This document shows, piece by piece, positions 1 to 36,139 of a stretch of DNA of 64,000 nucleotides (positions within the stretch are counted from its first letter, which is position 1; every line of letters starts with the position of its first letter). The notes beneath the pieces are model-generated. The model worked only from the letters and a program-made list of their open reading frames with translations, searched no databases and had not been told where the DNA came from. Position numbers and translations under genes: made by a program. The stretch is from the NCBI GenBank assembly GCA_023266935.1, contig JAHFOF010000002.1, positions 4,469-68,468 of the forward strand, in the 5' to 3' direction. This stretch comes from a bacterium (GTDB lineage Bacteria > Patescibacteriota > Minisyncoccia > Phycocordibacterales > Zambryskibacteraceae).

Positions 1-110
1 AAGGCGTTCTATGCACTCAAGTGGTGTTTCCCCAAGATTTTTATAAAGCTTTAGAATTTCGCCCTTTTCAGTCATTTTATTCATATTACACGAAATGCTA
101 TACTTTTCTC

Positions 111-911
111 ATGTCAAAACTTGATACCGCTCCATACAAGGGCGTCCGTGATTTTTATCCGGAGGATATGAAGATTGAGAATTATATCTTCAACACATGG
201 CGCGAAGTTGCCAAAGAATTTAATTATCAGGAATACAACGCATCTCCACTCGAATTAACTGAGATTTACACAGAAAAGAGCGGTAATGAGATTGTGAACG
301 AACAAACATTTACCTTTATTGATCGTGGCGGACGCTCAGTAACTCTCCGGCCAGAAATGACACCGACACTAGCACGAATGATAGCAGCCAAGAGAAGATC
401 TCTTGTATTTCCATTACGTTGGTATTCAATACCAAATCTTTTTCGCTACGAAAGACCTCAGAAAGGCAGGAGGCGTGAACACTATCAACTCAATTGTGAC
501 CTAATTGGAATTGATAATAATACTGAAGAAAATGATGCAGAAATAATCCGAATTGCTCACAAAATCATGCATAAATTTGGTGCCGAAAATAAAGATTTCG
601 AAGTCCGACTCAATTACCCGAACGGCTCTCCGGATGATTTAAAAAGCTTAATTGAACGATTAGAAAAAGATGGAATCACTAATACTAAGATTGATGAGAC
701 TCTCGCTCGAGGACAAGCTTACTACACAGGAATAGTGTTTGAAATTTTTGATACCGATGCAAAAAATCCGAGAGCTATCGCGGGTGGAGGAAGATATGAT
801 AATCTCTTGGAAATTTTCGGGGTCGAGTCAATACCGATGGTAGGATTTGGGATGGGGGATGTCACTATCCGAGATTTCCTCGAAGCACACAAGTTGGGTC
901 CGTATGCGTAA
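111..911 (+). CDS. Histidyl-tRNA synthetase-like class II catalytic core. It ends ~35 aa after motif 3 with no anticodon-binding domain. The ORF track starts at 21, but the likely start is M at 111.
   Basis: Motif 2 FRYERPQKGRRREHYQ and motif 3 GGGRYD are recognisable, with a typical HisRS N-terminus (DFYPED). The stop follows the GFGMG segment, where full HisRS continues into a ~100 aa anticodon-binding domain. Confidence 0.6.
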   Translation: MSKLDTAPYKGVRDFYPEDMKIENYIFNTWREVAKEFNYQEYNASPLELTEIYTEKSGNEIVNEQTFTFIDRGGRSVTLRPEMTPTLARMIAAKRRSLVFPLRWYSIPNLFRYERPQKGRRREHYQLNCDLIGIDNNTEENDAEIIRIAHKIMHKFGAENKDFEVRLNYPNGSPDDLKSLIERLEKDGITNTKIDETLARGQAYYTGIVFEIFDTDAKNPRAIAGGGRYDNLLEIFGVESIPMVGFGMGDVTIRDFLEAHKLGPYA

Positions 912-23502: not shown

Positions 23503-24417
23503 TTATGAATGCTTTTCTGCAAGGAGAGTAATCGCCTTGGTTACAATGGGCAAAATATCGTCATAAAAATTTAAATCCAAAATATCTGCTAACTTGAACC
23601 ATCGAACATCGTCCAAACCTCCTTTTTCTTCCTTTTTTTCCAGAGTTAAATCGTGGTATTCTGCTTCAGCCAAAAAATAAGTAATTTGTTTTTTAATTTT
23701 ACCTTTTTCTGGATGAAAAGTGGTGTAAGCATTTTCTCCTAACTTTACCCCAACTTTTATTGGTATCCCGATCTCAAGCGGAACTTTTCGCACTAAACAT
23801 GCTTCATTGGTTTCTCCTTCAGCCAATTTTCCTTTGGTTAATGTCCAGTGCCCAAAAACATCATGAACTAAAGCCAAATAAATATTTCCTTCATGATGGG
23901 CAAAGACAACGGCTCCAGCCAACCTTTCGAGTGGAAGCTGGTCGTCTGGGATATTGCCATACTTTTTCTTCGGACGAGGTTGGTCGTCTTTGCCTGGCTC
24001 ACCCATTTCTTTATAAACTGCGCCCAACACGCCGTTCACAAACCTACCAGAAGTGTCCCCACCAAAGCTCTTGGCAAGCTCTATGGCTTCGTTTATGGCC
24101 ACTTTTGGTGGAACTTCTTCCCTATCTGAAAAAAGTAATTCTGCTAAGCCGATACGCAAAATATTTCTATCAACAATCGAAATTTTCTCTAATGGCCAAT
24201 CCGGAGCTGCTTTTTCTATCAATAAATCTATATCTTTTTGTTTATCTACAACCGAATAAAGAAGCGCTTCCATAAACGGCTTATCGTTCGAACCACCAGC
24301 AAATTCTTTAAAATTACGCTCAAATATTTTATCTATCTTATTGTTTCTACTAGTATCAAAATCCCACTCAAAGAGTGTTTGGAGAACCACCGATCGTGAA
24401 AGGTGTCTGTTGGCCAT
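23503..24417 (-). CDS. nusB: NusB-like antitermination factor fused to a C-terminal Nudix hydrolase domain
   Basis: N-terminal NusB motifs (RSVVLQTLFEWDF, NILRIGLAELLF). The C-terminal Nudix box GKLAEGETNEACLVRKVPLEIGI fits Gx5Ex7REVxEExGI. Confidence 0.7.
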   Translation of the reverse strand: MANRHLSRSVVLQTLFEWDFDTSRNNKIDKIFERNFKEFAGGSNDKPFMEALLYSVVDKQKDIDLLIEKAAPDWPLEKISIVDRNILRIGLAELLFSDREEVPPKVAINEAIELAKSFGGDTSGRFVNGVLGAVYKEMGEPGKDDQPRPKKKYGNIPDDQLPLERLAGAVVFAHHEGNIYLALVHDVFGHWTLTKGKLAEGETNEACLVRKVPLEIGIPIKVGVKLGENAYTTFHPEKGKIKKQITYFLAEAEYHDLTLEKKEEKGGLDDVRWFKLADILDLNFYDDILPIVTKAITLLAEKHS

Positions 24418-33845: not shown

Positions 33846-34352
33846 TTAATCTATAAAAATAGCCATTTTTCGCCACTCCTTCTCAAAGGTTTTTATATCA
33901 ACAAATCGAGCATTCCTATCCCTATCATTTGAAGTACTTTCTGGATCATGAAAATAGAATCCCGAGACACTCCCCTCCGCTTCTTCGTAACCAGTAAGCA
34001 CAACCGTATGAAACTTTGTTTGTCCTAAGATAAATTTAATTATAGAAACTATGACAGGACTATTTTTGTCCAAAGAATTTTTTAGAGATTCAATGTTTTC
34101 AATCTTTTCTGCTCGATAAGATTCTAGCCCATATCCTTTGGCTAGATTTACAATCGAATCATGGAACCATCCTGATTTTCCATATCCGCCTTCTGTCTCT
34201 CCCTTTTTAATTAATTCTATTATGGGAACATTTTCTGCCTTGTGTTTAAAACTTAAAATCATTTTTAAACAAGTAGGTAAACAAGCACGGGGCATCCAGA
34301 ATTTATCTTCCACGTCTACAAATTGCGAATAGTATGGAACAGAGAGTTTCAT
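33846..34352 (-). CDS. Peptidase C39-like (PF13529-type) papain-fold cysteine peptidase
   Basis: VPYYSQ start, catalytic Cys context PRACLPTCLKMIL, and a His in HTVVLTGY. Confidence 0.6.
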   Translation of the reverse strand: MKLSVPYYSQFVDVEDKFWMPRACLPTCLKMILSFKHKAENVPIIELIKKGETEGGYGKSGWFHDSIVNLAKGYGLESYRAEKIENIESLKNSLDKNSPVIVSIIKFILGQTKFHTVVLTGYEEAEGSVSGFYFHDPESTSNDRDRNARFVDIKTFEKEWRKMAIFID

Positions 34353-34924
34353 TTGCTTAATTCTTTTATTAAATTATCTTTTTGTTTTAGATCAATTCTA
34401 TTTTCTGGAATTTCCACTACAAACCTTTTTTCTTTTATATTTGCTACTCGGCCATAACCAACTATGTTTTTAAAGGATGGACTCTCATCAAGATTTTCAA
34501 TCAAAACTAGACCTTTATACCATTTTCCTGATGCTTGGATAATCTTTCCGTCATCCAAATACATTCCTACATGGTTCGGGGATTTTTTATCATCACCTTC
34601 ATTATATGAATAAACAAAATCCCCAAATTTTAATTCTTCTTTATTAATAGGTTGGGTAAAGGAAAACTTTTCTATCACCAAACTCGGCATCCACACGCCG
34701 GCAAATGTATATAAATAACTTAAGAGAGACGAGCAACTAAAATAATCTGAGGCATCTTCTCGCATTGAGGTGTTAAATTTATACGGTTTGCCTAAAGTCT
34801 CCTCAATATGAGCCCTGAGTGCTGATTCAACTTCTACGTGTTGATATTTTAGACCACTCTTATTTAATGCTTCTTCATTCGTTTCCTTTTCTGATAACCC
34901 CACTCTGTATATCCAACTATTCAT
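34349..34924 (-). CDS. NlpC/P60-family cell-wall peptidase
   Basis: Catalytic Cys in YFSCSSLLSYLY and His in NHVGMYLDDGKII. The stop overlaps the C39-like start by 4 nt. Confidence 0.65.
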   Translation of the reverse strand: MNSWIYRVGLSEKETNEEALNKSGLKYQHVEVESALRAHIEETLGKPYKFNTSMREDASDYFSCSSLLSYLYTFAGVWMPSLVIEKFSFTQPINKEELKFGDFVYSYNEGDDKKSPNHVGMYLDDGKIIQASGKWYKGLVLIENLDESPSFKNIVGYGRVANIKEKRFVVEIPENRIDLKQKDNLIKELSK

Positions 34925-36072
34925 TAGGCAAGGCGAATTATGCCTCCGAACTCTTCGGTCGTAGATTCTTCAAGTTTAGAATGCAATTCATTTACTTCTG
35001 CATTCGTCAGGGTTTTATCCAAATGTCTATAAGTAATCCTGAAGGTATAGCTAATTTTTCCTTCTCCGAATTTCTCTGCATTTTCGTATTTATCCAAAAG
35101 AGCCACTTCCTCAACCATCGCACCTCCGATGTCTCGAATGTGATCAAAATAGTCATTTAAAATGAAATCTTCTTTCTTCACTACAAATGAGATATCTCTA
35201 ACCACGGGTGGAAATTTGCTAACTTCTTTAAATTTATGTCCCAAGACAAGCTGTTTTTTCACTCGTTCATCGTTCGACCAAAGGAGTCGAATATCTGGAA
35301 GTTCCATACTGACTATGGCCAATCTTTCCAATCCAAAACCGAAGGCCCAACCAGTATATTCATCTGGATTAACTCCAAAGTTTTTCAAAACTTCTTTCCT
35401 GACTATTCCACCGCCCAAAACTTCGACCCATTTTCCATCCTTCTCTATTTCCATTTCTATTGATGGGTCCGTGAATGGAAAAGAATCAACATTGAATCTA
35501 ATTTTTGTTTCTGGCCCAAAAATAGATTTGGCTATATCACTCAAAACACTTTTTAAATCTTCTTCGGTAATAACTTTTTCTGACTTTGGGGCAAGGTACC
35601 AACCATCGAGCTGGTGAAAAACATTCATATGGTGACGGTCTATCTCATCCTTGCGATAAACTTTTCCAAAACTAACTGAACCAACAGATTCACCTCGAGC
35701 AATCTTTTCTTTAACTTCTGGATCCTGTAGATAGTAGTACCACATCACAGTTGTGTGCGTGCGAAGAATATTTTTATCATTTACATAATATGTATCTGAT
35801 TTACTTCGCGCTGGATGGTCGGGAGCGAAGTTAAATAAATCAAAACTTATGTCTGTGGGTACGATTTCTGGTGCTTCGATAATATCTAAATTATTTAAAC
35901 TCGGAAGGTTGATGGCCCTGTCTATCATATCTTTTATAGGACTCCCTTCTAACCTCGAAAGGTCTGGCATGCTTAGATAACGTTTGATGCGCTCACCTTC
36001 TACGTCGTGTCTTTGATCAAGTTCTTTGATCAAACGTTTCTGTTCGTCTAGATTTACGGTGATATTCTTCAT
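34924..36072 (-). CDS. pheS: Phenylalanyl-tRNA synthetase catalytic (alpha-type) domain fused to a C-terminal FDX-ACB anticodon-binding domain, a monomeric mitochondrial-like architecture
   Basis: Class II motifs HPARSKSDTYYV, VYRKDEIDRHHMNVFHQLDG and GFGLERLAIV. A C-terminal ~95 aa segment (DISFVVKKEDF...GKISYTFRITYRHLDKTLTNAEVNE) matches the FDX-ACB fold normally found in PheT and mitochondrial PheRS. Confidence 0.75.
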   Translation of the reverse strand: MKNITVNLDEQKRLIKELDQRHDVEGERIKRYLSMPDLSRLEGSPIKDMIDRAINLPSLNNLDIIEAPEIVPTDISFDLFNFAPDHPARSKSDTYYVNDKNILRTHTTVMWYYYLQDPEVKEKIARGESVGSVSFGKVYRKDEIDRHHMNVFHQLDGWYLAPKSEKVITEEDLKSVLSDIAKSIFGPETKIRFNVDSFPFTDPSIEMEIEKDGKWVEVLGGGIVRKEVLKNFGVNPDEYTGWAFGFGLERLAIVSMELPDIRLLWSNDERVKKQLVLGHKFKEVSKFPPVVRDISFVVKKEDFILNDYFDHIRDIGGAMVEEVALLDKYENAEKFGEGKISYTFRITYRHLDKTLTNAEVNELHSKLEESTTEEFGGIIRLA

Positions 36073-36139
36073 AACTTCTAATTATACAGAAAGCTTGAAA
36101 AAACTGAAATAATGGCTTATAATCTGATTTCTCTTAGAT

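Follow-up and report, generated by a model that had tools for sequence, protein, structure and literature searches.

The DNA analysed here, a stretch of 64,000 nucleotides that we call the window, carries on its reverse strand a gene for phenylalanyl-tRNA synthetase (PheRS). The gene encodes a PheS-type catalytic core and a ferredoxin-fold anticodon-binding (FDX-ACB) domain in a single chain of 382 amino acids (aa). The textbook bacterial PheRS is an (alpha-beta)2 heterotetramer, and the monomeric enzyme made of a core and an FDX-ACB domain is known as a mitochondrial speciality. Here, we describe a bacterial single-chain form that is widespread in Paceibacteria-type bacteria of the candidate phyla radiation (CPR) and is likely to be their housekeeping PheRS. 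The gene and the parts of its product are located as follows.

34924..36072, reverse strand: single-chain PheRS gene (PheS-type core and FDX-ACB domain), ATG start, complete, 382 aa; from the open reading frame (ORF) list and Pfam PF01409 and PF03147
35944..36072, reverse strand: helical extension at the N-terminus (aa 1-43), which carries the RIKRYLxMPDLSR motif conserved in the clade; model helices at aa 9-18 and 24-34
35251..35943, reverse strand: class II (IIc) PheS-type catalytic core, aa 44-274; Pfam tRNA-synt_2d PF01409, profile positions 17-245 of 246, E 2e-55
35602..35667, reverse strand: motif 2, GKVYRKDEIDRHHMNVFHQLDG, aa 136-157; aligns with E. coli and human motif 2
35461..35481, reverse strand: FPFTDPS, taken as the Phe-binding strand, aa 198-204; aligns with E. 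coli FPFTEPS and human FPFTHPS
35317..35352, reverse strand: motif 3, GWAFGFGLERLA, aa 241-252, with the specificity alanine A243; aligns with E. coli GFAFGMGMERLT and human GWAFGLGLERLA
35221..35250, reverse strand: linker at the fusion point, aa 275-284; from the alignment with E. coli PheS and human FARS2
34933..35220, reverse strand: FDX-ACB domain, aa 285-380; PF03147, profile positions 1-94 of 94, E 3e-22
35080..35100, reverse strand: LLDKYEN, likely anticodon-contact strand, aa 325-331; aligns with E. coli PheT LFDVYRG and human LIDKFVH

The original prediction, which was made from the letters and their translation, described a class II core and an FDX-ACB domain of about 95 aa in one chain. 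The two strings that it quoted, VRDISFVVKKEDF and ISYTFRITYRHLDKTLTNAEVNE, are both present in the 382-aa product, and the two Pfam matches agree with its division of the chain. An identical protein is present in public databases, on a 132,652-bp NCBI contig. The FDX-ACB domain scores 79.3 bits against a Pfam cutoff of 31.1 and shows the beta-alpha-beta-beta-alpha-beta pattern in the AlphaFold2 model. It is homologous to B8, the last domain of PheT (positions 697-798 of 798 in TIGR00472 pheT_bact).

Conservation was read from 44 homologues, and the motifs were aligned to E. coli PheS, human FARS2, and the C-terminus of E. coli PheT. In motif 2, 15 positions are invariant. F198, P199, T201, and S204 are invariant in the FPFTDPS strand, whose Phe-binding role we assume from established PheRS structures. 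Motif 3 has eight invariant residues (W242, A243, F244, G245, G247, E249, R250, and A252). Motif 2, motif 3, and the Phe pocket are therefore intact, as is characteristic of a PheS-type class IIc core. In the LLDKYEN strand, D327 is invariant and Y329 nearly so; these residues may be the equivalents of the G34-contacting Asp and Tyr of Thermus PheT.

The two ends of the core are informative about how the chain is built. At the N-terminal side, L18, D23, R28, D37, L38, and R40 are invariant in the extension. The alignment to TIGR00468 pheS begins at aa 7, which corresponds to model position 35, whereas those to human mitochondrial PheRS and to the SrmL family start further in, at aa 70 and aa 59, respectively. 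The extension is probably a shortened remnant of the N-terminal arm of bacterial PheS. At the C-terminal side, the end of E. coli PheS (…DLRFLKQFK) falls near aa 274 of the window protein, a few residues before the fusion point. In the window and human chains alike, the sequence carries on past this point through a brief linker to SKFP/SKYP…RDISF/NDISF, where PheT domain B8 begins. The junction between the core and the FDX-ACB domain is the same in the window protein and in human FARS2, and the fusion junction is therefore homologous rather than convergent.

Solved structures point to the same relative. The best matches by sequence are human mitochondrial PheRS structures (3CMQ, 5MGU, and others; E ~3e-62, aa 70-375). 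Bacterial alpha subunits are next among the PDB sequence matches (E ~1e-36), and PheT chains in the PDB match the final 100 residues only (E ~5e-6). The AlphaFold2 model, built from 44 homologues, has a pLDDT of 91.1 and a pTM of 0.82. Its top Foldseek matches are 3CMQ, 5MGV, and 8P8X, with TM-scores of 0.75-0.76 over about 390 columns. Full-length superposition on the closed form of the human enzyme, 3CMQ, gives TM-scores of 0.75/0.71 and a root-mean-square deviation of 3.7 A over 389 columns. The open tRNA-bound form, 3TUP, fits the model more poorly (TM-score 0.58), and bacterial PheS alpha subunits fit it over the core only. A comparison with mitochondrial FARS2 had been proposed at the outset, and human mitochondrial PheRS is indeed the best solved relative in both sequence and full-length fold.

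Phosphoseryl-tRNA synthetase (SepRS), which is carried by Parcubacteria (PMC8762117), was also considered as the identity of the protein. It was ruled out, since no SepRS is found among the PDB matches and the Phe-pocket residues are those of PheRS.

The likeness to the mitochondrial enzymes is extensive but not complete. Human FARS2 and yeast MSF1 (TIGR00469, PheRS-M) share with the window protein the core, the C-terminal FDX-ACB domain, the junction, and the GWAFG and FPFTxPS signatures. The mitochondrial enzyme has no editing domain, and neither does the window protein. Compared with human mitochondrial PheRS, however, the window protein lacks an insert of about 30 aa between human residues 162 and 194, has its own 12-aa insert at aa 118-129, has no targeting peptide, and keeps a PheS-like helical remnant at the N-terminus. 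Its gene is a chromosomal housekeeping gene of a bacterial host and does not branch with eukaryotic sequences. The window protein also differs from the heterotetrameric enzyme. The core is homologous to E. coli PheS (34% identity), but the N-terminal ~90 aa of E. coli PheS have no counterpart in the window protein, and the N-terminal coiled coil of bacterial PheS is reduced. There is no nearby pheT partner, and the chain contains neither PheT domain B1 nor B3-B7, so the editing site is missing too. The mitochondrial single-chain enzyme is named 'PheRS-M' in AARS Online (PMC11580382). Recent classifications of aminoacyl-tRNA synthetases (aaRSs) describe PheRS-M as 'mitochondrial-like', with no mention of bacteria in their passages on this form (PMC10810186, PMC11580382). 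Full-text searches of the literature found no paper on single-chain PheRS in CPR bacteria.

The single chain is common among CPR bacteria. Each of the 120 best matches in a set of 5.8 billion proteins has both domains, and almost every one is approximately 350-400 aa long; identities are 65-75%. Their named sources are Parcubacteria, Paceibacterota, Minisyncoccia, and Zambryskibacteria. Where they are named, NCBI mostly annotates them as 'hypothetical protein', and JGI as 'alpha chain'. Relatives are encoded by at least 228 stretches in GTDB species genomes, the best 80 of which (L001-L080) were used for locus comparisons. These 80 loci come from metagenome-assembled genomes of the Nomura-, Yanofsky-, Zambryski-, Giovannoni-, Doudna-, and Vogelbacteria type, and one complete genome is included (CP174359.1, 721 kb), of which the 21 kb of locus L078 were covered. 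In 62 of the 80, gyrB directly adjoins the PheRS gene (for example, L003, L006, and L011). The median identity across related genomes is 64% for PheRS, as it is for GyrB and DnaE, and is lower for ThrRS (52%), Tsf (57%), and RpsB (57%). PheRS is thus as conserved as GyrB, which is the level of constraint expected of an essential gene.

The orientation of gyrB varies in these loci. It is either co-directional and downstream or divergent and upstream of the PheRS gene. The linkage is conserved with no obvious functional reason. A prophage or defence-island origin of the window gene was examined as well, and was ruled out by its genomic context, the gyrB synteny, and the lack of any PADLOC defence-system model match for the window PheRS.

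The original prediction stated that only mitochondrial PheRS is a monomer with a core and an FDX-ACB domain. This is untrue of the sequence databases. The chain occurs clade-wide in Paceibacteria, and also in a CPR lineage with genetic code 25, in SrmL proteins, and on huge-phage-like contigs. Among 1.84 billion cluster representatives, 282 clusters match at E <= 1e-30, and 92 of the 150 best are full-length representatives with core and FDX-ACB domain. They form four groups: the CPR clade, true SrmL, proteins of phage-like contigs, and eukaryotic mitochondrial enzymes, the last including Salpingoeca, Branchiostoma, Schizosaccharomyces Msf1, and Coemansia. A neighbour-joining tree was rooted on E. 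coli PheS, the single canonical outgroup. Bootstrap values are 100 for the CPR core clade, 100 for SrmL, 79 for the two together, and 48 for the remainder that holds the mitochondrial and phage-like proteins. With one canonical outgroup and a weak backbone (48%), the tree cannot settle the origin of the mitochondrial enzyme.

SrmL (NCBIfam NF051887, 'PheS-related mystery ligase') is a bacterial single chain with the same core and FDX-ACB layout as the window protein. The true members P0210 and P0253 reach 402 and 376 bits on NF051887. The genomic context of SrmL was read from one locus (L082:605-10565), which is a co-directional block with two unknown proteins of ~740 aa, a reverse transcriptase (RT), a 564-aa unknown protein, and a PLD nuclease. 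The RT is of a defence type (UG26/UG17/Drt9-like), and the nuclease is DrmC-like. This arrangement suggests that SrmL belongs to an as yet uncharacterised defence system built around the RT. The window protein differs from SrmL in falling below the family cutoff and in its gene context, since its gene lies beside gyrB among housekeeping genes with nothing to match the RT and PLD island of L082.

The phage-like group has the same two-domain chain in ~350 aa (P0141 and P0138/P0274) but lacks the N-terminal extension of the CPR proteins. With 264-308 bits, its members pass the pheS_mito cutoff that the window protein misses, and they are encoded amid phage-type genes on contigs of 160-340 kb. Their branches lie closer to the mitochondrial enzymes of eukaryotes than that of the CPR clade. 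Two of the genes are at L083:10001-11065 (160-kb contig) and L084:10001-11047 (340-kb contig). The contigs carry many small unknown ORFs and matches to PcfJ, a phage metallopeptidase, ThyX, dCMP deaminase, and a phage-family helicase, so that they are, provisionally, probably huge phages. Among GenBank phages, one record only contains a full-length relative (LR745206.1, 635 kb, uncultured; 26% identity); the other matches cover the core only and resemble ordinary pheS.

One member of the CPR clade, P0129 (456 aa, L086:9463-10833), is encoded with 13 in-frame TGA codons, which the database translation renders as Trp. Two of these codons sit at both glycine positions of motif 3 (GWAFGFG). P0129 thus points to a CPR lineage with genetic code 25, in which UGA is read as Gly (Gracilibacteria/Absconditabacteria type). 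Its gene adjoins an F-type ATP synthase operon.

A partner subunit was searched for in the window and in the related loci. As the original prediction had noted, no pheT is adjacent to the gene; the next genes on the same strand are two peptidase genes followed by gyrB. When E. coli PheT was used as the tblastn query against the 64-kb window, only the C-terminal domain of the PheRS gene itself matched. No B3_4, B5, or PheT-core domain was found in the window by Pfam scans, which covered 31 of its 47 ORFs that are 150 aa or longer, together with a separate gene table from which dnaE, thrS, and gyrB were identified. The supplements of the Minisyncoccus genome paper contain no pheS or pheT entry.

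A part of the beta subunit is nevertheless seen in some relatives. In 11 of the 80 loci, an ORF of about 140 aa lies on the same strand 17-118 nt upstream of the PheRS gene, and its product shares 29-41% identity with E. coli PheT over residues 36-151, which form the B2 tRNA-binding OB domain. These ORFs are listed below.

L040:310-732, B2-like ORF
L025:9559-9972, B2-like ORF
L035:8350-8775, B2-like ORF
L047:3564-3956, B2-like ORF
L052:5104-5517, B2-like ORF
L055:9519-9887, B2-like ORF
L059:1130-1519, B2-like ORF
L066:2938-3360, B2-like ORF
L070:8694-9071, B2-like ORF
L071:9642-9983, B2-like ORF
L076:9557-9973, B2-like ORF

The B2-like family comprises more than 2,500 standalone proteins, which carry the JGI label 'PheRS beta chain'. 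The 120 best B2-like matches are all standalone and 123-173 aa long, and no full-length Paceibacteria PheT was reached among them. In P0114 (507 aa), the B2-like domain is fused to the N-terminus of a single-chain PheRS. The upstream position in the 11 loci and the fusion in P0114 link the single-chain enzyme to tRNA binding. The B2-like protein seems to be what is left of the beta subunit, reduced to a minimal piece that acts in trans. The window contains no B2-like ORF.

We consider it likely that the single chain is the housekeeping PheRS of this Paceibacteria-type CPR lineage and replaces the (alpha-beta)2 enzyme without a PheT subunit. Several observations weigh against this interpretation. 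The window protein scores 247.4 bits on TIGR00469 pheS_mito (cutoff 258.35), 244.5 bits on SrmL NF051887 (cutoff 300), and 167.2 bits on TIGR00468 pheS (cutoff 237.45), which is below the threshold in each case. On TIGR00472 pheT, it scores 70.7 bits against a cutoff of 402.65, and only B8 of the domains B1-B8 matches. It belongs to none of the curated NCBIfam families and represents a separate bacterial clade. In the neighbour-joining tree, this clade lies closest to SrmL (bootstrap 79), a family of no known function. This also bears on the 'organelle-like' character given to the enzyme in the original prediction, which had proposed a phylogeny. The term is apt for the architecture, the junction, the fold, and the best solved relative, but not for descent, because the protein misses the pheS_mito cutoff and groups with SrmL, not with the eukaryotic sequences. 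Moreover, other CPR lineages are reported to keep a PheRS beta subunit, in many cases without domain B2 (PMC5370408). The portion of this genome that was inspected is 64 kb. Neither pheT nor a second pheS-like gene was found in the window and the 80 loci, which amount to ~1.3 Mb in total, a sample that is not statistically decisive for a randomly placed pheT.

These points can be read in favour of other explanations. The protein might be the alpha subunit of a heteromeric PheRS, with a reduced pheT elsewhere in the genome and the FDX-ACB domain merely moved from beta to alpha. The beta subunits reported for other CPR bacteria and the small inspected portion are compatible with this arrangement, as is the separate B2-like gene, through which part of beta survives in trans in some relatives. 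However, pheS and pheT are normally adjacent, as in E. coli, and yet pheT is beside the gene in none of the 81 loci. The single chain already carries the anticodon-binding domain, its full-length model resembles an enzyme known to work alone, and the N-terminal arm of PheS, which is used in the heterotetramer, is cut to ~40 aa. We regard a hidden heteromer as unlikely. The near equality of the SrmL and pheS_mito scores and the grouping of the CPR clade with true SrmL could instead indicate an accessory PheS-like ligase of the SrmL type that has a non-translational role alongside a normal PheRS. True SrmL proteins, however, score 376-402 bits, and the SrmL example is in an RT and DrmC-like PLD context, whereas the window gene is in a housekeeping block, keeps its synteny with gyrB, is conserved like GyrB, and has no PADLOC match. 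Its Phe-pocket and specificity residues are those of PheRS. An accessory ligase is thus very unlikely. If the gene had arrived recently by horizontal transfer, with a eukaryote, phage, or mobile element as donor, or were a contaminant introduced during binning, this would fit the close architectural relatives on huge-phage-like contigs, the slightly low local GC content (0.359 versus about 0.40), and an IS110-family transposase 12 kb away. Against this, the gene sits between core genes, and the contig was independently assembled in ENA too. Synteny is kept across candidate-phylum-level groups (Nomura-, Yanofsky-, Zambryski-, Giovannoni-, and Doudnabacteria), the CPR core clade has full bootstrap support, and the divergence of PheRS tracks that of GyrB. 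A recent arrival of the gene, or a contaminant, is most unlikely.

For a housekeeping single-chain PheRS, the reaction can be proposed by homology with the human mitochondrial enzyme. The class IIc core, with motifs 2 and 3, the FPFTDPS pocket, and the specificity alanine of GWAFG, would make Phe-AMP. The GAA anticodon would be read by the C-terminal FDX-ACB domain, which is expected to swing out of its closed resting position into the open form with tRNA bound, and Phe would be transferred to A76. As the chain lacks a B3/B4 editing domain, it would have no means of proofreading Tyr-tRNAPhe in cis. We infer that the enzyme is monomeric and active, and that it is the sole PheRS of the genome.

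The surroundings of the gene in the window include the following features.

34349-34924, reverse strand: NlpC/P60 peptidase gene, which shares base 34924 with the PheRS stop codon
33846-34352, reverse strand: Peptidase_C39_2/C70 papain-like gene, co-directional, after the NlpC/P60 gene
31718-33784, reverse strand: gyrB, co-directional downstream, after the two peptidase genes
36073..36139, no strand assigned: divergent intergenic region of 67 bp that separates the PheRS gene from a GT2 glycosyltransferase gene

The two downstream genes had been described as cell-wall peptidases. This is only half established: the NlpC/P60 protein is of a cell-wall hydrolase type, but a cell-wall substrate for the C39/C70-like protein is only presumed. 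The two genes are found near PheRS in only 15 and 12 of the 80 related loci and are a lineage-specific insert between the PheRS gene and gyrB. Upstream, the start codon of the PheRS gene is preceded at ~8 nt by the end of a TGTATAAT element, and there is no clear sign of a Shine-Dalgarno sequence. The PheRS mRNA may be leaderless or have a very short leader. A promoter-like site on the forward strand (36095-36123) would serve the GT2 gene. The 67-bp region is too small for a T-box, a pheM-type leader, or a leader-peptide control element.

The window is rich in housekeeping genes, including gyrB, thrS, dnaE, tsf, rpsB, rpoB, rpoC, rpoD, and dnaG. The Pfam scans also identified trmD, RNase R, SMC, RNase III, nusB, a release factor, L25, and ribonucleotide reductase (RNR), as well as glycolysis and pentose-phosphate genes and a gene resembling that of histidyl-tRNA synthetase (HisRS). 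This HisRS-like ORF (21-911, forward strand, 296 aa) corresponds to the catalytic part of hisS, with 243.8 bits against a cutoff of 286.75. It has no HGTP_anticodon domain and is followed by an overlapping ORF for an RNase H-fold exonuclease (847-1479). The ORF may represent a further aaRS that has been trimmed, or else a gene that is split or frameshifted. An unusual fusion of NusB (aa 7-136) and a NUDIX hydrolase (aa 169-284) is encoded at 23503-24417 on the reverse strand (304 aa). An IS110/IS116-family transposase ORF (47695-48789, reverse strand) coincides with the GC maximum of the window (0.473 at 48001-50000, compared with about 0.40), which makes a mobile insertion probable. On the reverse strand, two ORFs that lie side by side are very large: 49999-53403 (1,134 aa) and 53475-57338 (1,287 aa). 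The former has no Pfam match, and the latter has only a C-terminal bacterial Ig (Big_7) domain. Their products are probably surface or host-interaction proteins.

In mechanism, the single chain would be of the known mitochondrial kind, in a bacterial, clade-wide form. A wider scenario, which we put forward tentatively and judge to be on the unlikely side, is that the single chain is an old prokaryotic design. Whole CPR classes (Paceibacteria and the UGA=Gly lineage) would depend on it as their only PheRS, huge phages would carry it too, and SrmL would be a co-opted form; a bacterium or phage of this kind would have been the donor of the mitochondrial PheRS. Under this scenario, a major bacterial radiation would also carry out translation with no cis-editing of Tyr-tRNAPhe. 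A similar donor origin has been proposed for the phage-type RNA polymerase and helicase of mitochondria. If the single chain is the sole PheRS of Paceibacteria, prokaryotic and phage relatives would offer a direct test of where the mitochondrial enzyme came from.

There would also be consequences for the annotation of genomes and for estimates of their completeness, as the protein misses all curated NCBIfam cutoffs and is a 'hypothetical protein' in many NCBI records. The pheS and pheT models serve as bacterial marker genes, and genomes with a single-chain PheRS would fail those markers. A compact bacterial PheRS of 44 kDa could, in addition, be a convenient engineering scaffold. If the single chain is indeed the only PheRS of these organisms, a large bacterial class would translate with a minimal, editing-free PheRS, which would bear on translational fidelity in ultra-small symbionts and on the shrinkage of aaRS complexes.

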